64,000 bases of DNA from an uncultured Candidatus Saccharibacteria bacterium (GTDB taxonomy: Bacteria; Patescibacteriota; Minisyncoccia; Portnoybacterales; UBA2143). This document shows positions 5,066 to 41,065 of the stretch, piece after piece. The stretch spans positions 2,025-66,024 of the forward strand of contig CAZMCO010000001.1 in the NCBI GenBank assembly GCA_964565215.1. Direction: 5' to 3'. A model generated the notes under the pieces. It saw only the letters and a list, made by a program, of their open reading frames with translations. It was not told where the DNA came from and did no database searches. Positions within the stretch are counted from its first letter, which is position 1. Every line of letters begins with the position of its first letter. The translations under genes and the position numbers were made by a program.

Positions 5066-5129
5066 TTATTAATATTCTCTCTTAAAATCCCCTTGTTGTC
5101 AATTGGAAATCAGAGTATAATAGAAGTGT

Positions 5130-5894
5130 ATGGCTCAAATAATCAGTTTGGTCAATCAGAAAGGGGGTGTTGGCAAGAGCACATCGGCTATAAATTTATC
5201 TGGTTACTTGGCAGCTATGGGTAAATATGTTCTTTTGGTTGATATTGACCCGCAAGCCAATGCTACTTCGGGAATTGGTTTAGACCCCCAAAATCTTCCC
5301 TTAAATTTATATCATTCTTTAATTGGCGGTCTTTTACCTGAAGAAATTATTCGTCAGACAGCTCTTTTTGGCTATGATATTATGCCAGCGGCTCCTGATT
5401 TGGCCGGGGCAACCGTAGAATTAGTTTCCCAGCCCAATCGGGAATTCAAACTTTACGAATTACTCCGTCGGATTAGAACTAATTATGATTATATTTTAGT
5501 TGATTGTCCTCCCAGTTTGGGTCTTTTAACTATTAATGGTTTAGTAGCCGCTGACGAAGTAATTATTCCAGTTCAGTGTGAATATTATGCCTTAGAAGGA
5601 CTAGGACAGCTTTTAAGAACCATTGAATTGGTCCAGGAAAATTTAGCCAGTCCAACAAAAATTAAAGGAGCTTTATTAACTATGCATGATCGTCGCAATA
5701 AACTTTCCCGGCAGGTAAAAAAAGAAATGGAAAGAAATTTTTCAGGTTATATTTTTGGGGCAGTCATTCCTCGTTGTGTTAAATTGGCCGAAGCGCCCAG
5801 TTTTGGTCAATCGATTCTTCAATATAATCCTCATTCTAAAGGAGCTAAGGCCTATCGACAGTTGGCTCAAGAAATAATTGGCCTTGACAAATAA
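5130..5894 (+). CDS. parA: chromosome partitioning ATPase ParA/Soj
   Basis: Deviant Walker A KGGVGKST motif; 254 aa. Confidence 0.9.
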   Translation: MAQIISLVNQKGGVGKSTSAINLSGYLAAMGKYVLLVDIDPQANATSGIGLDPQNLPLNLYHSLIGGLLPEEIIRQTALFGYDIMPAAPDLAGATVELVSQPNREFKLYELLRRIRTNYDYILVDCPPSLGLLTINGLVAADEVIIPVQCEYYALEGLGQLLRTIELVQENLASPTKIKGALLTMHDRRNKLSRQVKKEMERNFSGYIFGAVIPRCVKLAEAPSFGQSILQYNPHSKGAKAYRQLAQEIIGLDK

Positions 5895-8883: not shown

Positions 8884-8927
8884 TGCCCCGATTTTGTATT
8901 TCAAAAATCGGGGCTTATTTTTTTTCA
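8884..8927. terminator. bidirectional rho-independent terminator between the NUDIX gene and topA
   Basis: Hairpin gccccgatttt...aaaatcggggc flanked by A and T runs. Confidence 0.7.
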
Positions 8928-10936
8928 ACTGCCTTAAAATCACATTCTTTATTACTGCACTTAACTTTATTATTTTTTGCTTGAACTAACAAAGAGCCGC
9001 ATTTGGGACATTTTTCTCCAGTCGGTTTATCCCATAAGGCAAAGTCGCATTTGGGGTATTGGGAACAAGAATAAAATATTTTTCCCTTTCTGGTTTTTCT
9101 TTCAATGATTTCACCTTGACCGCATTTAGGACAGACGACTCCCGTTGAGTTAATTATTGGTTCGGTATATTTGCATTCCGGGAAACCAGAACAAGCATAA
9201 AATTTGCCAAAGCGGCCTAATTTAATAATTATTGGCTGACCGCATTTGGGACATTTTTTATCAGTCGGTTCTTCAAGTTTTTTCTTGACCACTTTTTTCT
9301 CTTTTTCGAGAAGATTAGCATGAAATGGCTGATAAAAATCCTTAAGGACAGTTAGCCAATTTTGTTGACCTTTGGCAATTCTATCCAAATCTTCTTCTAA
9401 ATAAGCGGTAAATTTAATGTCAACAATTTTAGGGAAGTTTTCTACTAAAAGATTGTTGACTAAAAGACCAATCTCTGTGGGAATAAATTTTCTTTGTTCA
9501 TTTTTTTCAACATAGCCGCGCTCCTGAATAGTGCCGATTATCGGCGCATAAGTTGAAGGTCGACCAATGCCATATTCTTCTAATGTTTTAACCAAAGAGG
9601 CCTCATTATAACGGGCTGGCGGCTGGGTAAAATGTTGTTCAGAAAAAAGTTTAATTAGTTTCAGTATTTCTTCTTTATTTAAAGAAGGAAGAATAGTTTC
9701 TTTTAATTTAGTTGGATAAACCTTAAAAAAGCCGTCAAATTTGATAATTGAACCATTGGCTCGGAAAAGATAATTTTTTCCTGAAATATCAACGGCAGTG
9801 GAATCCAAAACAGCTGGCTGCATTTGGCAGGCAATAAACCTTTGCCAAATTAACTGATATAATTTGTCAGTTGACTGGCGATTAACTTGAGTTGGTCTAA
9901 TCGCCTCATGAGCTTCTTGAGCGCCTTTTGTTTTGGTCTTATAAATTCTCGGACTGGCTAAAGTATAATTTTGACCAAATTTGTTTTTAATAAATTCTTG
10001 GGTAGATTTCAAAGCTTCTTTAGAAATATTTAAAGAGTCGGTCCGATGATAGGTAATCAGGCCGTCTTCATAAAGCTGCTGGGCAATTCTCATTGTTTGT
10101 TTAGCGGACAATCCTAATTTTTTAACCGCTTCTTGCTGGAGAGTGCTAGTAGTAAAAGGCGGCGCCGGATATCTTTTTACTTCCTTGCTTTCAATATTAA
10201 CTACTTTATATTTTGCTCCCTTTAAATCTTTTAATATCTTATCTGCTTCTTGTTTTACTTTGATGCCTAACTTGTTAATTGCCTTATCATCTTTTTTTAT
10301 TAGTCGAGCAATAAACTCGTCTGATTGATTTTCTTTCTGGAGTTTTACCTCAATACTCCAATATTCTTCTGGTTTAAAATCCTTAATTTCTTTTTCTCGT
10401 TCAACAATTAGTCGGACAGTCACCGATTGGACCCGGCCAGCTGATAATCCCTTAACTATTTTTTTCCATAAAAAAGGCGATAGTTCATAGCCGACTAACC
10501 TGTCTAAGATTCGTCGGGTCTGTTGGGCATTAACTGAATCCATATCAATTTGTCGTGGATTTTTCAATGCTTCTTCAATGGCTTTTTTTGTTATTTCATG
10601 AAAGACAATCCTTTGGTAATCTTTGCCATCTAAATCGAGAATTTTGACTAAATGCCAGGCAATAGCTTCTCCTTCTCGATCTTGGTCTGTAGCTAAAATT
10701 ATCATGTCTGTTTTTTTAGCCGCTTTTTTAAGTTCTGCGACTACTTTTCGCGCTTTAACAAGAATAACATACTTTGGCTTAAAATTGTCTTTGACATCAA
10801 CGCCGAGCTCTCTTTTGGGTAAGTCGCGAATATGACCATAAGAAGATTTGACCGAATAATCGCGGCTCAAGAATTTAGAAATAGTATTTGCTTTACTCGG
10901 TGATTCAACGATAATTAAGTTCATATAAAATGTCAT
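8915..10936 (-). CDS. topA: DNA topoisomerase I with C-terminal zinc-ribbon repeats
   Basis: TOPRIM N-terminus (LIIVESPSKA) and multiple C4 zinc fingers in the C-terminus. The true start is probably the internal ATG at 10924. Confidence 0.95.
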   Translation of the reverse strand: MTFYMNLIIVESPSKANTISKFLSRDYSVKSSYGHIRDLPKRELGVDVKDNFKPKYVILVKARKVVAELKKAAKKTDMIILATDQDREGEAIAWHLVKILDLDGKDYQRIVFHEITKKAIEEALKNPRQIDMDSVNAQQTRRILDRLVGYELSPFLWKKIVKGLSAGRVQSVTVRLIVEREKEIKDFKPEEYWSIEVKLQKENQSDEFIARLIKKDDKAINKLGIKVKQEADKILKDLKGAKYKVVNIESKEVKRYPAPPFTTSTLQQEAVKKLGLSAKQTMRIAQQLYEDGLITYHRTDSLNISKEALKSTQEFIKNKFGQNYTLASPRIYKTKTKGAQEAHEAIRPTQVNRQSTDKLYQLIWQRFIACQMQPAVLDSTAVDISGKNYLFRANGSIIKFDGFFKVYPTKLKETILPSLNKEEILKLIKLFSEQHFTQPPARYNEASLVKTLEEYGIGRPSTYAPIIGTIQERGYVEKNEQRKFIPTEIGLLVNNLLVENFPKIVDIKFTAYLEEDLDRIAKGQQNWLTVLKDFYQPFHANLLEKEKKVVKKKLEEPTDKKCPKCGQPIIIKLGRFGKFYACSGFPECKYTEPIINSTGVVCPKCGQGEIIERKTRKGKIFYSCSQYPKCDFALWDKPTGEKCPKCGSLLVQAKNNKVKCSNKECDFKAVEKK

Positions 10937-11795
10937 TGGCCTGGCTGACTAATTTAGCTCCCATTTTTATTAAATTATTAGGGCCCAAAGAATTTTTAGC
11001 CAGAATAGGACCAGGAATAGCAAAAACATCTCTGTTTTGCTCTAAAGCATCTTTGGCAGTGATTAAGGCGCCGCTTTTTTCAGGCGCCTCAATAACTAAG
11101 ATACCTAAACTTAAACCAGAAATGATTCGATTACGCTGAGGAAAATGCTGAGCTAAAGGTTCAGCGCCAATAGGGAATTCGCTAATAACTGCTCCCTTTT
11201 GACTAATTTCTTCAGCCAGGTGTCGATTAATAGAAGGATAGATACTTTTTTTGTCTAAGCCCGAACCCAAGACAGCAATGGTTCGACCATTAGCTTTCAG
11301 AGCCGCTTGGTGAGCTAAGGTGTCAATTCCTTTGGCTAAGCCACTAATAATAGTTAAGCCAGCTCCGGCTAAATCAGACGTTATTAAAGGAGTAATCTGC
11401 TGACCGTAAGAAGAAAGTTTTCTGGTGCCAACAATAGCCAGGCTGAATTCGTCATTCAATTCAAGTTTGCCGCGGATATAAAGAAGAGCTGGTGGACTAT
11501 AAATCTCTTTAAGCAATTTAGGATAATTTTTATCTAAAATAGTAATTAAGTCAATCCCTTCTTTAGTTAATCTTTCCATCTGCTCACTTGGATTAATCTG
11601 GGGACGTTGTTTTTTAATTTGTTCAATAACAAAGTTTTCTAAGCCAGCTTGTCTAAGTTGATTAATTTCTATTGACCAGGCTTCTTCCAATGAGTTAAAA
11701 TGAGCCAGTAGTTTTTTAAAAGCAATTGGGCCAAGGCCGTCAATTAGATTAAAGGCATTGAAATATTTTGTCTCGGGGTTGACAAATTCTGTCAT
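10905..11795 (-). CDS. dprA: DNA-processing protein DprA/Smf
   Basis: Rossmann-like DprA core (AIVGTRKLSSYG...GLAKGIDT..AH); 296 aa. Confidence 0.9.
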   Translation of the reverse strand: MTEFVNPETKYFNAFNLIDGLGPIAFKKLLAHFNSLEEAWSIEINQLRQAGLENFVIEQIKKQRPQINPSEQMERLTKEGIDLITILDKNYPKLLKEIYSPPALLYIRGKLELNDEFSLAIVGTRKLSSYGQQITPLITSDLAGAGLTIISGLAKGIDTLAHQAALKANGRTIAVLGSGLDKKSIYPSINRHLAEEISQKGAVISEFPIGAEPLAQHFPQRNRIISGLSLGILVIEAPEKSGALITAKDALEQNRDVFAIPGPILAKNSLGPNNLIKMGAKLVSQANDILYELNYR

Positions 11796-11806
11796 TTTGG
11801 TATACT
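11779..11806 (+). promoter_or_regulatory. near-consensus sigma70-type promoter (TTGACA-16-TATACT) reading rightwards
   Basis: Direct read of the hexamers. It overlaps the dprA start codon on the opposite strand. Confidence 0.5.
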
Positions 11807-11820
11807 ATTATTATCTTTAA

Positions 11821-11953
11821 TCTCCATAGGCCTGCCTAGTGAGTAACCAATATCTGGGCCAATCCCTCCTAAAGGTTCAGTGAGGTTTGAATATTAGGGA
11901 TACTCTGCTTTTGTGGATTTGTCCCTAAGGCTCCTAGGTAGGCTTATGGAGAT
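11821..11953 (+). ncRNA. candidate structured RNA / long leader hairpin (18-bp closing stem with two G-U pairs enclosing ~95 nt)
   Basis: Left arm ctccataggcctgcctag at 11821-11838 pairs with right arm ctaggtaggcttatggag at 11934-11951. The two mismatches are G:T on the + strand only. An internal atccct/agggat stem is also present. Confidence 0.35.
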
Positions 11954-11995
11954 TAATAATTAATAGTTCTTTAATATTTAAATAAGGAGATAGGG

Positions 11996-12235
11996 ATGAA
12001 AAAGAAGATTTTAAGTTGGGTTTTAGGTTTTTTTGGTCTTTTGGGATTCGCGATGGTTTTTGGCGGAGTGATTGGAGCTCATGGCGATTATAAAAAAGGA
12101 GTCATTGTTGCTGTGGTTGGGTTAGGAATGATGATCTTAATTTTTGTTGTAAATTATCTTTGTAGCCGTTTTTCCTATCGGCCTCGGCCGCTGCCCATGG
12201 ATAAAAAATGGGATAAACTCAAAAAAGCATTATAG
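11996..12235 (+). CDS. small hydrophobic membrane protein (2 TM), hypothetical
   Basis: Shine-Dalgarno aaggag lies 8 nt upstream of the ATG; 79 aa with two hydrophobic helices. Confidence 0.5.
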   Translation: MKKKILSWVLGFFGLLGFAMVFGGVIGAHGDYKKGVIVAVVGLGMMILIFVVNYLCSRFSYRPRPLPMDKKWDKLKKAL

Positions 12236-12240
12236 CTTTA

Positions 12241-12765
12241 CTATAGGGCTGTCATAATCATTTGGACAGCCCTTTTTATTATCTCTTGGACAACTTTTTC
12301 TTCTTCCAGAGTAAATTTGTCTAAGACAAATTTTTCAGTATTAAGACAGGCCTCTGAAAAAATTCCAACTCTCATTCTAATAAAATCCTTAGTATTTAGT
12401 TGGTCAATAATTGATTGAACTCCTTTATGGCCAGCTGCCCCGCGACTTTTTTGGATTCGCATTTCTCCTAAAGGCAAATCAATATCATCCTGAATAACCA
12501 GGATTTCTTCAGTTGGAATTTTATAATACTTAATTAATAACTTAACCGCTAAACCAGAATTATTCATAAAAGTTTGCGGTTTGGCTAAAATAATTTTTTC
12601 TTTATTAAAATGTCCTTGGGCTATTGAGGCATGAAATTGCAAATCTATTTTCCAATGATTAAGTTTTATTCGGCTAGCTAATTCTTCAATAACTCGCCAG
12701 CCGAGATTATGCCGGGTTTTTTCATATTTAATTCCTGGATTGCCTAAGCTAACGATTAATTTCAT
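12241..12765 (-). CDS. pth: peptidyl-tRNA hydrolase
   Basis: N-terminus LIVGLGNPG..Y..TRHN is diagnostic for Pth. Confidence 0.9.
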   Translation of the reverse strand: MKLIVSLGNPGIKYEKTRHNLGWRVIEELASRIKLNHWKIDLQFHASIAQGHFNKEKIILAKPQTFMNNSGLAVKLLIKYYKIPTEEILVIQDDIDLPLGEMRIQKSRGAAGHKGVQSIIDQLNTKDFIRMRVGIFSEACLNTEKFVLDKFTLEEEKVVQEIIKRAVQMIMTAL

Positions 12766-12770
12766 AGATT

Positions 12771-13754
12771 TTAAGGACGCACCTTAATGTACTCATGTAT
12801 CTCGTTGTAATTACCCTGACCAACTTTGGGATAAACAACCGAAGCCACTTGTTTGCCAAACATTACTTGGTCACCAACTAACAAATTGGTCCGCTTTTTA
12901 TCAATAACCAAATGAGTTATCTGATCTACATTAAGTTCTTGGGCTGTCTGCCAGAGAGATTTCATTTCCATTAGACCGAGATCAGTTTGAATATGGTTTT
13001 TAAGGGTATTAAAGATTTTAAAATAAGTAGGGAAGTTCCAGAGAGGATTAAGAGCCAGAACTTTTTGCTTAACCAGCCGGATAATCTGTTGCTGCCGAGC
13101 CATCCGGTCAAAATCGCCATTAGGCGAAGTATAGCGAGTGCGAATATATTTAAGAGTACTCTCGCCATCTAAATAACGCCAACCAGCCTTGAGAACAAAG
13201 GCCTGATAAGTATAATTTGCTCCGGGGAAATAAGGGTCATCAATATCTTGAGGAACATAAACATTAAGTCCATCAACTAATTTAATGATTTCTTTAACCA
13301 CGGCTAAATCAACTAAAATATAATGGTCAATAGATAAGTCAGTAATTTCTTCTACTTTTTCTCTAAGTCCTTCAATGCCAACTAAATAATAAAGAGAGTT
13401 AATTTTGGTGAAATTATCCTGACCAGGCACTTTGACTAATAAATCACGCGGTAAAGAAATTAAAGTTGCTCTCCCTTCAACTGGTCCTAAATGAACTAAG
13501 ATAATTGTATCAGTCAGGTCTCCTCCGGAATATCCTTGGCCTGGTCGGCCGAGGACAAGAATATTCTTTTCCATTGATTTATTATTTGAAAATAAAGATG
13601 AAATATTTTTAAAAATAGAAGTTTCTTTTTTGGGAATTGATTTTTCAAGTTTTGAAGATACTTCCATAGAAGAAGAAGGAATTAATTTGATAAGAAAAAA
13701 TAGACCAATGAAAATTGATAAAGCCAAGCCAGCGATTTTTAAAAACTTAACCAT
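12771..13754 (-). CDS. LytR-CpsA-Psr (LCP) family cell-envelope phosphotransferase
   Basis: N-terminal TM followed by the LCP core (DTIILVHL...SLPRD). Confidence 0.8.
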   Translation of the reverse strand: MVKFLKIAGLALSIFIGLFFLIKLIPSSSMEVSSKLEKSIPKKETSIFKNISSLFSNNKSMEKNILVLGRPGQGYSGGDLTDTIILVHLGPVEGRATLISLPRDLLVKVPGQDNFTKINSLYYLVGIEGLREKVEEITDLSIDHYILVDLAVVKEIIKLVDGLNVYVPQDIDDPYFPGANYTYQAFVLKAGWRYLDGESTLKYIRTRYTSPNGDFDRMARQQQIIRLVKQKVLALNPLWNFPTYFKIFNTLKNHIQTDLGLMEMKSLWQTAQELNVDQITHLVIDKKRTNLLVGDQVMFGKQVASVVYPKVGQGNYNEIHEYIKVRP

Positions 13755-13815
13755 TTCTATTAAATAGTATACCAGATTTGCTTTTCTTTGAGAAATAAGT
13801 TAGAATCAAACTAAA

Positions 13816-14352
13816 ATGAAAAAAATATTCGTTTTCATCTGGGAAACTTTCAAAATAGTAGTTATTTCCTTGGCGATTATTATTCCAGTTCGCTATTTTT
13901 TGATTCAGCCTTTTTTCGTTCGAGGAGCTTCCATGGAGCCCAATTTTGACAATGGTCAATATCTGGTTATTAATGAGATAGGTTATCGTTTTGAAGAGCC
14001 GCAACGAAAAGAAGTTGTAGTTTTCAAGTATCCCCTGGATCCCAGTCAGTATTATATTAAACGAATAATTGGCTTACCCAACGAGACAATTGAGATTAAA
14101 AACAACCAAGTGATTATCTATAATTTGGAATTTCCCCAAGGAAAAATTTTAGACGAGTCCTCTTATTTAGCTGCTGGGACAATCACTTGGGGAGAAACTA
14201 AGGTCAAATTAGCTAAGGATGAATATTTTGTCTTAGGTGATAATCGTCAGGCCAGCTCTGATTCTCGTCAATGGGGAATTCTTACCAGGAAAAATGTTAT
14301 TGGTCGAGTTTGGTTGCGAGCCTGGCCTTTTGATCAACTAACTATATTTTAA
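13816..14352 (+). CDS. lepB: signal peptidase I
   Basis: SMEP catalytic Ser box and a GDNR..S.DSR box. Confidence 0.85.
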   Translation: MKKIFVFIWETFKIVVISLAIIIPVRYFLIQPFFVRGASMEPNFDNGQYLVINEIGYRFEEPQRKEVVVFKYPLDPSQYYIKRIIGLPNETIEIKNNQVIIYNLEFPQGKILDESSYLAAGTITWGETKVKLAKDEYFVLGDNRQASSDSRQWGILTRKNVIGRVWLRAWPFDQLTIF

Positions 14353-29012: not shown

Positions 29013-29046
29013 AATAGTGGTTCTTTAACTTAAAATAGGAGGGGAT

Positions 29047-31390: not shown

Positions 31391-31464
31391 TGCCCTCGTA
31401 GCTCAGCGGATTAGAGCAGCGCACTCCTAACGCGCAGGTCGCACGTTCGAGTCGTGCCGAGGGC
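31391..31464 (+). tRNA. tRNA-Arg (anticodon CCT)
   Basis: Manual fold: acceptor GCCCTCG/CGAGGGC, anticodon loop CTCCTAA. Confidence 0.7.
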
Positions 31465-31469
31465 GCTAA

Positions 31470-31544
31470 GGGGGATGTAGCTCATTTGGCTAGAGCGTTT
31501 GCGTGGCACGCAAAAGGTAGCGGGTTCGACTCCCGCCATCTCCA
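31470..31544 (+). tRNA. tRNA-Ala (anticodon GGC)
   Basis: Manual fold: the G3:U70 Ala identity pair is present and the anticodon loop is GTGGCAC. Confidence 0.75.
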
Positions 31545-31551
31545 CTTATTG

Positions 31552-31623
31552 GCCGAGGTAGCTCAGGGGTAGAGCGCTTCTCTGAAAAAGAAGAAGTCGG
31601 CGGTTCGATTCCGCCCCTCGGCA
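31552..31623 (+). tRNA. tRNA-Phe (anticodon GAA)
   Basis: Manual fold: anticodon arm CTTCT-CTGAAAA-AGAAG. Confidence 0.8.
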
Positions 31624-31731
31624 CATAAATTTTTCGCTTTGCTCAAAATTTGAGTAGTTAGTAATTTGTAATTAGTAATTTAGCGAAAAATTTATCCCAA
31701 ATTACAAATTACACACACAAAATACTTTTCG
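31624..31731 (+). repeat. spacer element with 13-nt perfect inverted repeat (ataaatttttcgc / gcgaaaaatttat), internal palindrome ctcaaaatttgag and tandem tagtaattt / aaattac repeats
   Basis: Direct read of the spacer between tRNA-Phe and tRNA-Gly. Confidence 0.5.
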
Positions 31732-31803
31732 GCGGGTGTCGTATAGCGGTTATTACACGTGCTTGCCAAGCACGCGACGGCGGTTCGACTCCGCTCACCC
31801 GCT
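31732..31803 (+). tRNA. tRNA-Gly (anticodon GCC)
   Basis: Manual fold: anticodon arm CGTGC-TTGCCAA-GCACG, a 4-nt variable loop, and a U73 discriminator. Confidence 0.75.
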
Positions 31804-31812
31804 CAAAACTAT

Positions 31813-32380: not shown

Positions 32381-32410
32381 AGACCCCGTTATTCGACGGG
32401 GTCTTTATTT
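32381..32410 (+). terminator. rho-independent terminator (agaccccgt...acggggtct + T run)
   Basis: Perfect 9-bp GC-rich stem followed by TTTATTT. Confidence 0.7.
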
Positions 32411-32497
32411 GGTGCCGCGGGTGGGACTCGAACCCACACGGGCATAATGCCCACACGATTTTAAGTCGTGCGCGTAAGCCAATTCCGCCACCGCGGC
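32410..32497 (-). tRNA. tRNA-Leu (anticodon TAA), CCA encoded
   Basis: Manual fold: long variable arm and anticodon arm CACGA-CTTAAAA-TCGTG. Confidence 0.8.
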
Positions 32498-32498
32498 C

Positions 32499-32572
32499 TG
32501 GAGGTCATGACCGGATTCGAACCGGTGTACACGGTTTTGCAGACCGTTGCCTAGCCGCTCGGCCACATGACC
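32499..32572 (-). tRNA. tRNA-Cys (anticodon GCA), CCA encoded
   Basis: Manual fold: anticodon arm ACGGT-CTGCAAA-ACCGT and U73. It is 1 nt from tRNA-Leu. Confidence 0.8.
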
Positions 32573-38189: not shown

Positions 38190-38280
<91 letters not shown>

Positions 38281-38353
38281 TTATTGCCTAAACTACCATA
38301 TTTTAAGACCTTTGGTCAAATAAAATAGCCGCTTGAGACGACTATTTTTTTTG

Positions 38354-38427
38354 TGGGCGGTGGAGGACTCGAACCCCCGACCTCTTCAGTGTAAATGAAG
38401 CACTCTAACCAACTGAGCTAACCGCCC
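38354..38427 (-). tRNA. tRNA-Val (anticodon TAC)
   Basis: Manual fold: anticodon arm CTTCA-TTTACAC-TGAAG and A73. Confidence 0.75.
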
Positions 38428-38489
38428 ATAATAGAATTTATTCTACCAGAAATTTTTTAAAAAAGCCAGTTTTCTGATATAATTTATAT

Positions 38490-39686
38490 ATGTTTCCGTC
38501 ATTAGAAAAAAAATATTTTGATGTGCCTTTAACTCATGGTTTTGTTTCTCTATATACTGGTAAGGCCATTATCATGATTGCTTCAGCTCTTTTGGGTATA
38601 TTTTTGCCGATTTTTTTATATGAACTTTTTAATCAGAGTTTTCGAGCCGTAGTTATTTATTATGGATTGGGTTATTTTTTCTATGGTTTAACTGTAGCTC
38701 TGGGCGGAAAATTTTTAAATAAATTTGGTTTTAGAAGGGCCTTACGGGTTAGTGTTTTTCTAGGTGCTTTATTCTACGTTATTTTTTATTTTATTGACCA
38801 GGGTAATCTCAAATATCTAATTCCTTTTTCTATTATTGTTCTAACTTTCTATCGTTTATCTTATTGGTTGCCTTATCATATTGATTTTGCTAAATTTACT
38901 GACAAAAAAGACAGAGGTCGACAAGTTGGTGTGGTTGAGGCGACCCGCTCTGCCTTCCAAGTCTTTGCTCCTTTAATTGCTGGTTTTATTGTGCTTCGCT
39001 TTAGCTTTGATGTTCTTTTTGTTATTACCATTATTCTTTTTTTTACTTCGGGTATTCCTTATTTAACTATTCCGCTGACTCGGGAAAAATTTAGCTGGAC
39101 TTTGAAAGAAACTTGGCAGCAATTTTTTTCAAGAAGAAGAAGGAAAATGGTCTTAGCCTATATGGCCTTTGGGGCAGAGAATGTCATTACTTTAGTTGTC
39201 TGGCCAATTTTTATTTACCAGCTTTTAAAAGGAAATTATTTTAATATAGGAGCGATATCTACTTTAATTATTGGAACAACTGTCATTATCCAACTTATTT
39301 TAGGTAGATATATTGATTTAAAAACTTCTAAAGAAAGAGTTTTGGGCTGGGGGAGTTTCTTTTATTCTTTGGGCTGGCTGATTAAAATTTTCATTACTAC
39401 TGCTTTTCAGATTTTTGTGGTTGGTACTTATCATAGTCTAGCTTATATTTTTTTCCGGACTCCTTTCGATGCTTTAAGTTATGAAATATCAGCTGACCAG
39501 GGGCACTATGTAGATGAATTTACTGTCTTGCGCGAAATGGCCTCTATGTTTGGCAGGAGTTTAATGGTTATTTTAGTTATTTTGGTTTCTTTTTATTTTT
39601 CCATCCAATGGATTTTTATCTTAGCGGCTCTAGCGGCTGTTATTGTTAATTTACTTAGAAGAGTAAAGCAAGAAAGATTTGTTTAA
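38490..39686 (+). CDS. polytopic membrane protein, MFS-transporter-like
   Basis: About 12 predicted TM helices in two 6-helix halves. Confidence 0.45.
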   Translation: MFPSLEKKYFDVPLTHGFVSLYTGKAIIMIASALLGIFLPIFLYELFNQSFRAVVIYYGLGYFFYGLTVALGGKFLNKFGFRRALRVSVFLGALFYVIFYFIDQGNLKYLIPFSIIVLTFYRLSYWLPYHIDFAKFTDKKDRGRQVGVVEATRSAFQVFAPLIAGFIVLRFSFDVLFVITIILFFTSGIPYLTIPLTREKFSWTLKETWQQFFSRRRRKMVLAYMAFGAENVITLVVWPIFIYQLLKGNYFNIGAISTLIIGTTVIIQLILGRYIDLKTSKERVLGWGSFFYSLGWLIKIFITTAFQIFVVGTYHSLAYIFFRTPFDALSYEISADQGHYVDEFTVLREMASMFGRSLMVILVILVSFYFSIQWIFILAALAAVIVNLLRRVKQERFV

Positions 39687-40822: not shown

Positions 40823-40823
40823 G

Positions 40824-40895
40824 TGGACCAGGTGGGAATCGGACCCACGACCTTCTCTGTGCAAAAGAGATATTCTACCACTGAACTACTGGCCC
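40824..40895 (-). tRNA. tRNA-Ala (anticodon TGC)
   Basis: Manual fold: G3:U70 pair present, anticodon arm TCTCT-TTTGCAC-AGAGA. Confidence 0.75.
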
Positions 40896-40915
40896 TGGCT
40901 AAATATATATTTTAG

Positions 40916-40989
40916 TGGGCGGTAGAGGACTCGAACCTCTGACCTCGTCGATGTCAACGACGCACTCTAACCAGCTGAGCTAACCGCCC
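40916..40989 (-). tRNA. tRNA-Val (anticodon GAC)
   Basis: Manual fold: anticodon arm CGTCG-TTGACAT-CGACG. Confidence 0.8.
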
Positions 40990-40990
40990 T

Positions 40991-41065
40991 TGGTGGGCGT
41001 GCCAGGATTCGAACCTGGGACCTTGGCCTTATAAGAGCCCTGCTCTGCCACTGAGCTACACGCCC
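40991..41065 (-). tRNA. tRNA-Ile (anticodon TAT / UAU), CCA encoded
   Basis: Manual fold: acceptor GGGCGTG/CACGCCC, A73, and anticodon arm GGGCT-CTTATAA-GGCCA, so positions 34-36 read TAT. Confidence 0.55.

Follow-up and report, generated by a model that had tools for sequence, protein, structure and literature searches.

Within a 64-kb stretch of DNA from an uncultured bacterium of the Candidate Phyla Radiation (CPR, or Patescibacteria; contig CAZMCO010000001.1, positions 2,025 to 66,024), hereafter called the window, the interval between dprA and pth holds a candidate promoter, a structured RNA of about 145 nucleotides and a small open reading frame (ORF) for a protein with two transmembrane (TM) segments. 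The genes topA and dprA are divergent from the RNA; pth, an LCP-family gene, lepB and hisS lie downstream. An initial annotation of this DNA had described an 18-base-pair (bp) stem in the 5' leader of the small membrane protein gene. We find that the RNA represents a new family, in kind a structured bacterial small RNA (sRNA), that is absent from Rfam. That this family is conserved with compensatory changes across many CPR lineages, and is vertically inherited, is well supported.

Structure and promoter of the RNA in the window

The plus strand from 11815 to 11960 folds with a minimum free energy (MFE) of -69.2 kcal/mol, as compared with -38.7 +/- 3.9 kcal/mol for shuffled sequences (z -7.8; none of 200 shuffles equaled it), and the MFE and centroid structures are concordant. 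The minus strand forms a less stable fold (-52.6 kcal/mol, z -5.1). On the plus strand the predicted structure is a three-way junction with a closing helix, P1, an arm composed of P2, an asymmetric internal loop and the P3 hairpin, and a third arm, P4, separated from the 3' strand of P2 by a 6-nucleotide junction stretch (Table 1). The outer part of P1 is an uninterrupted helix of 23 bp, with 94 nucleotides enclosed between its arms, and it is extended past a bulged U by four pairs, GAGU with GCUC. The stem first described, said to have 18 bp around some 95 nucleotides, is therefore a real helix that proves to be longer. Both of its arms exist and its 3' arm was correctly placed at 11934-11951, but the 5' arm, ctccataggcctgcctag, which is unique within the window, lies at 11822-11839 and not at 11821-11838. 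Direct reading of the sequence agrees with the initial annotation that the only two non-Watson-Crick positions are G-U pairs, G11829-U11944 and G11834-U11939.

The P3 hairpin is capped by a 13-nucleotide apical loop, AAUCCCUCCUAAA, that includes the motif CCCUCCU. An inner stem atccct/agggat, also put forward at first, does not fit this structure: ATCCCT falls within the invariant apical loop, AGGGAT pairs with 11920-11928 in a hairpin, and in relatives AGGGAT becomes AGAGAT or similar with no compensating change in the loop. The direct repeat reported as tccctcctaaagg / tccctaaggctcctagg is a loop motif adjoining a helix strand and is not conserved as a repeat. Two further motifs were considered and rejected. 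An H-type pseudoknot between CCUCC of the loop and GAGG after P3 is sterically unlikely, with a connector of 1 nucleotide, and GAGG is used in P2; a K-turn at the AAUAU/UGA internal loop is disfavored by a sequence unlike the G-A/A-G consensus.

The rightward promoter reported upstream of the stem was found again, as TTGACA, a 16-nucleotide spacer and TATACT. In a promoter scan, 11 of the 12 consensus positions are matched, and the TG of an extended -10 element is present as well. Promoter spacing predicts a transcription start near 11813, about 4 nucleotides 5' of the first P1 pair. The layout TTGACA-N16/17-TGnTATAAT is common to the relatives at loci L001-L005, L007, L009 and L060, where its conservation is partly confounded by dprA coding, and a TTGACA / TATAAT-type promoter is predicted 5-40 nucleotides upstream in most members of the family. 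On the minus strand, a putative -10 element of dprA (TAGTAT, 11802-11807) sits 6 nucleotides before the dprA ATG and shares five bases with the -10 element of the RNA (11801-11806), an arrangement kept in L002, L005, L007, L009 and L060. Given this overlap, the divergent sRNA and dprA promoters could exclude each other.

Table 1. Features of the RNA locus in the window (positions are those of the window; pairings and terminator are predicted).
Feature	Position	Strand	Remarks
dprA (PF02481, Pfam)	10905-11795	-	divergent; start 17 nucleotides from RNA
-35 hexamer TTGACA	11779-11784	+	sRNA promoter; within first codons of opposite-strand dprA
Extended -10 TGgTATACT	11798-11806	+	hexamer TATACT 11801-11806; TG at 11798-11799
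Whole structured RNA, three-way junction, ~145 nucleotides	11812-11960	+	covariance-model match 150.7 bits (R1), 119.1 bits (R2)
P1 5' strand	11817-11844	+	23 bp (11817-11839, with 11934-11956), bulged U 11840, 4 further pairs (11841-11844, with 11930-11933)
P2 5' strand AACC	11845-11848	+	pairs with GGUU 11884-11887
Asymmetric internal loop P2/P3	AAUAU 11849-11853, UGA 11881-11883	+	MFE fold
P3 hairpin	11854-11880	+	stem 11854-11860 / 11874-11880; 13-nucleotide apical loop 11861-11873
Loop motif CCCUCCU, anti-Shine-Dalgarno-like	11864-11870	+	presumed functional site
P2 3' strand GGUU	11884-11887	+	
P4 hairpin, third junction arm	11894-11928	+	MFE fold
P1 3' strand	11930-11956	+	11930-11933 and 11934-11956; holds conserved purine-rich CUAGGUAGGC
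Shine-Dalgarno AAGGAG of small ORF	11984-11989	+	unpaired in fold of 11813-12030 (MFE and centroid)
79-aa two-TM ORF, basic C-terminal tail	11996-12235	+	no Pfam family
pth, peptidyl-tRNA hydrolase (PF01195, E = 4e-58)	12241-12765	-	convergent; best-conserved neighbor of the RNA
Probable intrinsic terminator	12246-12277	+	GGGCUGUC, 11-nucleotide loop, GACAGCCC, UUUUU; within last codons of convergent pth

Covariation and the conserved core

To collect relatives, we searched for DprA in one genome per GTDB species and obtained 80 loci, mostly from CPR metagenome-assembled genomes, the nearest of which are labeled Portnoybacteria or Parcubacteria. Ten of the 80 contain the element upstream of dprA on the other strand, as judged by sequence searches with blastn and nhmmer. 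A MAFFT alignment of eight relatives, made free of any model, gave by RNAalifold a structure of 54 pairs, 26 of them with compensatory double changes; in P2, for instance, AACC/GGUU of the window corresponds to GGCC/GGCC in L003 and GGUU/AACC in L001. Covariance models built from eight sequences (R1) and from 36 (R2) detected a full-length copy in 39 of the 80 dprA-anchored loci, exactly one in each and invariably on the strand opposite dprA. With these models the RNA was not found in the five non-CPR loci of the DprA set. The positive loci carry the labels Portnoybacteria, Doudnabacteria, Falkowbacteria, Kerfeldbacteria, 'Parcubacteria group' and 'Patescibacteria group'.

A second sample, chosen without any gene anchor, came from a scan of JGI metagenome contigs for an exact pattern, in which the loop block and the P1 3' block stand 40-70 nucleotides apart. 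Of the 80 loci obtained, 77 hold full-length members (72-126 bits), with one copy per locus. As the pattern recovers only 12 of the 36 known members, this sample is biased toward two subfamilies.

When the members were aligned to the model as 94 distinct sequences, 91.4% of the cells in paired columns held a valid pair, versus 36-48% when the 3' partners were slid by 1-3 columns. Double changes occur at 51 of the 54 pairs, and none of 500 shuffles attains any of the observed measures. All 30 modeled pairs of P1 are variable, 27 of them in a compensatory manner; all five modeled pairs of P3 covary, with 97% of cells paired, as do all 15 pairs of P4 (95% of cells). The MAFFT alignment agrees with the model-fitted structure, and so do single-sequence folds: each of five distant members, folded singly, forms the same three-way junction, or the same hairpin in the short form L010, with z between -5.5 and -8.6. 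Compensatory change thus maintains the pairing in relatives, both in the eight sequences and in the larger set.

The initial claim that the G-U pairs betray strand-specific selection at the RNA level is supported as well. The family alignment contains 766 G-U cells versus 121 A-C cells, and the R2 model scores the window at 119 bits on the plus strand and 31 bits on the minus strand, a drop of about 90 bits. The G-U excess, together with the low reverse-strand score, indicates that the plus strand of the window is the functional, transcribed strand. These data bear directly on the idea that the conserved object is a DNA-level element, whether a bidirectional terminator for pth and its neighbors, a protein-binding palindrome or a repeat. 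Such an element could explain why, in L010, L013, L034, L035 and L141, P1 stands between an A-run and a U-run and adjoins or overlaps the stop codon of pth, and it would fit the fact that the minus strand also folds well. However, a six-fold preponderance of G-U over A-C means that the helices are maintained on one strand only, a terminator has no need of an invariant 7-nucleotide loop and covarying branched arms, promoters are aimed into the RNA, separate terminator hairpins follow it at many loci, and the element is single-copy and without phage matches. We therefore regard the DNA-level explanation as scarcely credible. The initial annotation had named two findings that would speak against an RNA, a pairing not conserved in relatives and a multi-copy inverted repeat; since the pairing is conserved and the element is single-copy in the loci searched, neither describes this locus. 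A minus-strand transcript serving as the 5' untranslated region of dprA was also considered, and was rejected on its weaker fold, its 31 versus 119 bits and the G-U/A-C asymmetry, as well as on loci in which the RNA lies 3-4 kb from dprA yet is still beside pth (L022, L023, L034 and others).

The most constant part of the RNA is the apical loop. CCCUCCU is present in all 36 dprA-anchored members, always in an apical loop of 11-13 nucleotides, and is predicted to be unpaired in the independent folds of the five distant members. The flank 5' of CCUCCU is variable, reading AAUC, CAUC, AACC or UAAC. In the inner part of P1 not only the pairing but also the sequence is conserved, with a 5' strand of GCCUGCCUAG and a 3' strand of AGGUAGG, whose Gs stand opposite C or U, so that G-C and G-U pairs alternate among relatives. 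Three pairs next to the junction are near-invariant (C-G in 90, A-U in 89 and G-C in 90 of the 94 sequences), and P1 keeps a length of 26-30 bp across the family, short forms included. In distant members the P2/P3 internal loop reads GAAA opposite (A)GUA, which by its sequence looks like a loop-E or bulged-G module. P4 is dispensable: it is missing from L009, L010 and L013, which are hairpins of about 100 nucleotides. An extra GC-rich junction hairpin is present in L008 (5734-5953), L002 (5800-5984) and L015 (1939-2103); in L008 and L002 the insertion is GCCCCGCACC...GGUGCGGGG, and in L002 it replaces P4. Given that P4 and the inserted hairpins come and go, and that P1, P2, P3 and the loop are universal, the functional core would consist of P1, P2, the internal loop, P3 and the apical loop.

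Genomic context and the adjacent small ORF

In the window, the Shine-Dalgarno (SD) sequence and the 79-aa two-TM ORF are as first described, and they follow P1 after an AT-rich spacer of 27 nucleotides (G+C of 21% over 11957-11995). A scan found no promoter or terminator between the RNA and the ORF, the terminator scan being limited to loops of at most 8 nucleotides; the hairpin within the end of pth, with its 11-nucleotide loop, was read directly from the sequence. Judged from this arrangement, the ORF is probably co-transcribed with the RNA in the window. Because the terminator lies inside the 3' end of pth, the RNA-ORF and pth transcripts would overlap in antisense by about 35 nucleotides. 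The stop codons of the small ORF and pth are 5 nucleotides apart.

The description of the RNA as a leader of the small gene therefore holds for the local map of the window; across the family it does not, as 46-59 of 86 distinct members (about 53-69%) have no same-strand ORF downstream. Such loss is seen even among close relatives. L008 has lost the ORF and retains the RNA, directly followed by the terminator also seen in the window; L010, L013 and L015 likewise lack the small ORF. A terminator hairpin with a U-run stands directly after P1, or within 75 nucleotides of it, in 45 of 59 ORF-less members. Among distant members, hairpin and U-run are immediately 3' of the RNA in L046, L048, L051, L053, L054, L061, L071, L073, L076 and L080; in other members P1 itself runs into a U-tract in L034, L037, L069 and L010. 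In 27-35 of the 86, an SD-led ORF for a small two-TM protein (43-102 aa) lies no more than about 110 nucleotides downstream. These proteins do not form one family, since an all-against-all phmmer comparison of 29 distinct adjacent ORFs gave three clusters and ten singletons with no single conserved partner protein, and the ORF of the window has only four close homologues among 5.8 billion proteins. With the ORFs poorly conserved and often absent, the RNA is far more conserved than the gene that it supposedly regulates. On the sequence evidence, it is well supported that the RNA is an autonomous gene with its own putative promoter and not mainly a leader, the leader arrangement being local and lineage-specific.

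We accordingly consider it very unlikely that the RNA acts chiefly in cis, as a riboswitch, thermosensor or translational attenuator of the membrane-protein ORF. Such a leader would account for the SD-led two-TM ORF found 20-110 nucleotides after P1, with no intervening terminator, in roughly one third of the members, the window included, and for the complementarity to the SD region of the loop and, in the window, also of the P1 5' strand AUCUCCAUA. Yet the members that lack the ORF end in a terminator facing the convergent gene, close relatives (L008, L010, L013 and L015) do without the ORF, and the adjacent ORFs are not one conserved family. In addition, the SD is left unpaired in both folds of the window transcript, the complementarity of the P1 strand to the SD is not kept in L004 or L007, the loop and the ribosome-binding site show no co-evolution, and we found no conserved alternative structure that could serve as a switch. 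A riboswitch or leader as the function of the family as a whole is thus largely refuted by the downstream context, the free SD and the unconserved complementarity of the P1 strand.

The small, hydrophobic, fast-evolving ORFs, gained and lost among close relatives, also bring to mind a type I toxin-antitoxin-like or dual-function module, in which a membrane toxin would be silenced at translation by the structured RNA, or countered by it as an RNA antidote; a highly structured 5' region with an anti-SD motif on the same transcript would suit this role. In this respect the window resembles type I toxin mRNAs, SgrS/SgrT, RNAIII/hld and SR1/SR1P, all of which combine a structured RNA domain and a small hydrophobic ORF, seemingly on one transcript here. 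Unlike in those dual-function RNAs, the RNA domain is conserved independently of the ORF, and persists under strong purifying selection in lineages that have no adjacent ORF. No antisense RNA partner or overlapping promoter was found, the SD is not sequestered in the predicted folds, and the RNA occupies one fixed chromosomal site beside pth, as opposed to the multi-copy, patchy distribution typical of type I loci. We judge such a module to be very improbable.

In contrast to the ORF, the neighborhood of pth is constant. A convergent pth lies downstream in 56 of 58 pattern-anchored loci with enough flank, and in most gene-anchored loci, as compared with a dprA within 4.5 kb upstream in 39 of 57 pattern-anchored loci; adjacency to pth is thus far more conserved than that to dprA. 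In L022, L023, L034, L035 and L043 the RNA is 3-4 kb from dprA and still beside pth. The 3' end of the RNA abuts or overlaps the pth stop codon in L008, L013, L035, L141 and L128. The adjacency may reflect a shared terminator, a frozen gene order or a real link to peptidyl-tRNA recycling.

Each of the 31 small ORFs adjacent to the RNA has an AAGGAGG-type SD sequence 6-9 nucleotides before the start codon. By comparison, an SD motif precedes the first ATG in only nine of 58 long ORFs of the window. Many ATGs are preceded at 6-9 nucleotides by -10-like hexamers (TATAAT, TAGAAT or TATACT), as in gcTATAATacacatATGAAA for pth. Such leaderless-type starts are seen at 13795-13818 (lepB), 13754-13775 on the minus strand (LCP), 11795-11810 on the minus strand (dprA), 5110-5132 and 38470-38492, and for pth also in about 30 related loci. 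The rarity of SD motifs and the closeness of these hexamers to the ATG suggest that leaderless mRNAs are widespread in the lineage. The strongly SD-led genes of the window include those for an HtrA-type protease, an SPFH protein with a small protein upstream, a DksA/TraR zinc-finger protein, a HAD hydrolase and IF-2. Given a strong SD on every adjacent small ORF in a setting where most genes have none, these ORFs are most simply seen as internal to the RNA transcript, which supports co-transcription in the window.

The two-TM proteins (11996-12235 in the window; L003, L007, L060, L090, L091, L103, L156 and others) share Arg/Lys-rich C-terminal tails, often with a single Trp, for example KKWDKLKK, PKWEKRRRQRLGL, RMRKWRRQ, RRRRKWHREIRRERR and CRKWLAERRR. 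These basic tails may stem from the positive-inside rule, from distant homology or from a role in RNA binding.

Beyond dprA, the topA ORF as listed (8915-10936, minus strand) overlaps the dprA 3' end by 32 nucleotides (10905-10936); the listed start is the first start codon after a stop, and the true start may be further downstream.

Relation to known RNAs and proposed function

In searches of the whole window with Rfam 15 (4227 models) at gathering thresholds, only tRNAs pass, and no rRNA, signal recognition particle (SRP) RNA, RNase P, transfer-messenger RNA (tmRNA) or 6S match was obtained in its 64 kb. The 16 tRNA genes include several tight clusters (Arg-Ala-Phe ... Gly; Leu-Cys; Ile-Val-Ala), with cluster positions at 31392-31804, 32410-32572, 38192-38427 and 40823-41065. 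At E <= 10, the region 11700-12100 and a divergent member (L055:5685-5860) returned noise only, namely MIR7533 at 16 bits against a threshold of 230 bits, ROSE_3 on the wrong strand and snoRNAs. The initial remark that the element matches no known riboswitch consensus can thus be extended to every Rfam family. Full-text literature searches on non-coding RNAs of CPR/Patescibacteria and on the CCCUCCU motif turned up no description of the RNA, and a phage collection contained nothing similar to it.

A highly divergent housekeeping RNA missed by the Rfam models would be consistent with conservation on the scale of a phylum, one copy per locus, fixed synteny and 5' and 3' ends paired in a long helix, and the order of helices around the junction is that of 5S rRNA. 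No match to RF00013, RF00169 or RF00001 was found at E <= 10 for the two divergent members searched, and structural comparison makes each candidate highly improbable. Like 6S RNA, the present RNA is conserved, single-copy and rod-like with paired ends, and an idea of mimicry attaches to both (the 16S 3' tail here, an open promoter for 6S). Unlike 6S, with which it shares no RF00013 similarity, it has about 145 rather than about 185 nucleotides and no central bubble or terminal stem from two halves; covariation instead supports a three-way junction with two independent hairpins. SRP RNA is disfavored by the lack of a GNAR tetraloop or domain-IV loops and by the apical loop of 11-13 nucleotides with CCCUCCU. 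The topology recalls 5S rRNA: a closing helix is followed by a first arm, which has an internal loop and a loop of about 12 nucleotides, and then by a second arm with a small loop. In contrast to 5S rRNA, there are no universal 5S motifs and no RF00001 match, and the second arm is dispensable; a P1 about three times as long as helix I of 5S rRNA and the missing P4 of L009, L010 and L013 are incompatible with that identity. Y RNA and hammerhead, whose consensus features we compared by eye, were rejected against the covariation-supported structure.

The three pattern matches that are not members of the family are clustered regularly interspaced short palindromic repeat (CRISPR) arrays (L110:1440-1700, L116:1330-1755 and L155:40-290) and are not matched by the model. 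Their repeat, GTTTCAATCCCTC(C/G)TAGGTAGGCT(CCGAAC/GCAAAC), joins the sRNA blocks CAAUCCCUCCUA and CCUAGGUAGGCU, which are about 60 nucleotides apart in the sRNA. The search pattern itself imposes most of this identity, and four additional bases in the flanks match; the likeness is probably coincidental. A CRISPR repeat or CRISPR RNA was rejected as the nature of the RNA itself, which is single-copy and has no tandem repeats with spacers.

The best precedent comes from Hfq-independent sRNAs of Gram-positive bacteria, whose C-rich apical loops block initiation through pairing with SD sequences. The CPR host lineage is not known to use Hfq. Similar to RsaE/RoxS, RNAIII (H7/H13/H14) and the streptococcal csRNAs ccnA-E, the RNA exposes in a hairpin loop an unpaired C-rich motif (UCCC or CCUCC) that is complementary to SD sequences, and it appears to be a stand-alone gene with its own promoter and terminator, both predicted here. 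It shares neither sequence nor model similarity with them, and it has one seed loop where they have two or three. It further differs in its three-way junction, its loop-E-like motif and a closing helix of 26-30 bp whose sequence is conserved, and in a conservation that extends over several CPR classes instead of a genus or family. The resemblance to C-rich-seed sRNAs thus lies in presumed mechanism only, and the RNA is not a member of those families.

Our preferred reading, to which we give about an even chance, is that of an autonomous gene for an sRNA of about 145 nucleotides whose C-rich loop would base-pair with SD or other G-rich sites. Transcription would start from a sigma-70-type promoter a few bases before the closing helix. 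P1, with its 26-30 bp below the three-way junction, would provide a rigid scaffold, on which the arm of P2, internal loop and P3 displays the CCCUCCU loop and P4 is optional; P1 might also confer nuclease resistance and sometimes function as a terminator. The loop, (A/C)AUC-CCUCCU-AA, resembles over 7-9 nucleotides the 3' tail of Escherichia coli 16S rRNA, AUCACCUCCUUA, and on this likeness it may mimic the 16S tail. It is complementary to AGGAGG(G), and its predicted duplexes with the SD sequences of the 31 adjacent ORFs average about -11 kcal/mol. As a seed of this kind, it would pair with AGGAGG-type mRNA sites and block 30S binding. Its targets would be a small subset of SD-dependent genes, among which the adjacent membrane-protein ORF is the nearest candidate. 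In the window, where the usual terminator after the RNA is missing, transcription would continue through the two-TM ORF to the terminator in the 3' end of pth; lying inside the transcript, this ORF requires an SD and has one. An RNase III cut in the long P1 could then separate the stable sRNA from the ORF mRNA.

Several observations weigh against an sRNA of this type. The alignments behind the large covariation counts were fitted to the model, so the percentage of paired cells is inflated. The 57 metagenome members were selected by a pattern that itself holds the loop motif, and the invariance of the loop therefore rests on 36-40 gene-anchored members. No co-variation is seen between the loop flanks and the ribosome-binding site of the neighboring ORF, duplexes with the own ORF averaging -10.82 kcal/mol versus -10.84 kcal/mol for crossed pairs (permutation p = 0.56). 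No specific target emerged: when the window was scanned for sequences complementary to the loop, apart from AT-rich noise a single generic SD site appeared, at 29036, and complementarity to the SD sites of the window does not go beyond generic GGAGG(G). Duplex energies with the start regions of six neighboring gene families showed nothing consistent, these neighbors being mostly without SD. Finally, a seed-loop sRNA has no obvious need of a 30-bp closing helix whose length is conserved, of a helix sequence kept as CCUNNNU.../...AGGUAGG, of junction pairs that do not vary or of a loop-E-like motif. Features of this sort are more usual in RNAs bound by proteins, among them SRP, 6S and Y RNA.

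The main rival, a protein-binding or scaffold RNA within a ribonucleoprotein (RNP), builds on these features. It would take the P1 sequence, the junction, the loop-E-like motif and the CCCUCCU loop together as a binding surface, and we consider it somewhat unlikely. Conservation of sequence inside helices, the near-invariant junction pairs, a P1 length kept even in short forms and the GAAA / AGUA pattern of the internal loop all favor it. The likeness of the loop to the 16S 3' end of E. coli would point to factors that act on the 16S tail as partners (Era, the YbeY/KsgA-type maturation machinery, S1 or S21), but the loop does not preserve the GAUCA portion of the Era site. Alternatively, the partners could be the basic tails of the adjacent two-TM proteins, which would anchor the RNA at the membrane in the manner of OapA and OLE RNA; in about a third of the members, heterogeneous two-TM ORFs with Arg/Lys-rich tails, often with Trp (KKW, RKW, PKWEK), are found downstream. 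Like OLE RNA with OapA, the RNA is a structured non-coding RNA with strong covariation that, in some of the lineages having it, immediately precedes a gene for a small multi-TM protein, an analogy that suggests a possible membrane-tethered RNP. OLE RNA differs in its length of about 610 nucleotides, its restriction to Firmicutes and its constant association with a conserved oapA, whereas the proteins here are heterogeneous, poorly conserved and absent from more than half of the members. By the positive-inside rule, basic residues would in any case be expected to follow a TM helix, and in the flanks that we retrieved no candidate protein co-occurs with the RNA except pth, dprA and the variable small ORFs.

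A broader proposal, which we hold to be unlikely, would make the RNA a CPR-wide riboregulator of housekeeping grade that mimics the anti-SD tail from its rigid 30-bp scaffold and, in genomes whose mRNAs seem for the most part leaderless or SD-less, either governs the small SD-dependent translatome or titrates a factor of the 16S 3' end, and that may form a membrane RNP with the small two-TM proteins encoded beside it in a third of the lineages.

The CPR make up a large share of bacterial diversity, and regulation of gene expression in them is almost unexplored. Beyond tRNA, rRNA, RNase P, SRP and tmRNA, we know of essentially no non-coding RNAs described from these bacteria. Conservation over several classes, a fixed position at pth/dprA and covariation of Rfam grade form a combination that usually marks a central cellular role. 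As a family of that grade, the RNA would aid the annotation of thousands of metagenome-assembled genomes and put an end to its labeling as an anonymous 'leader'. Its invariant, SD-complementary loop leads to a directly testable hypothesis of translational control in organisms that seem mostly to initiate without an SD sequence.

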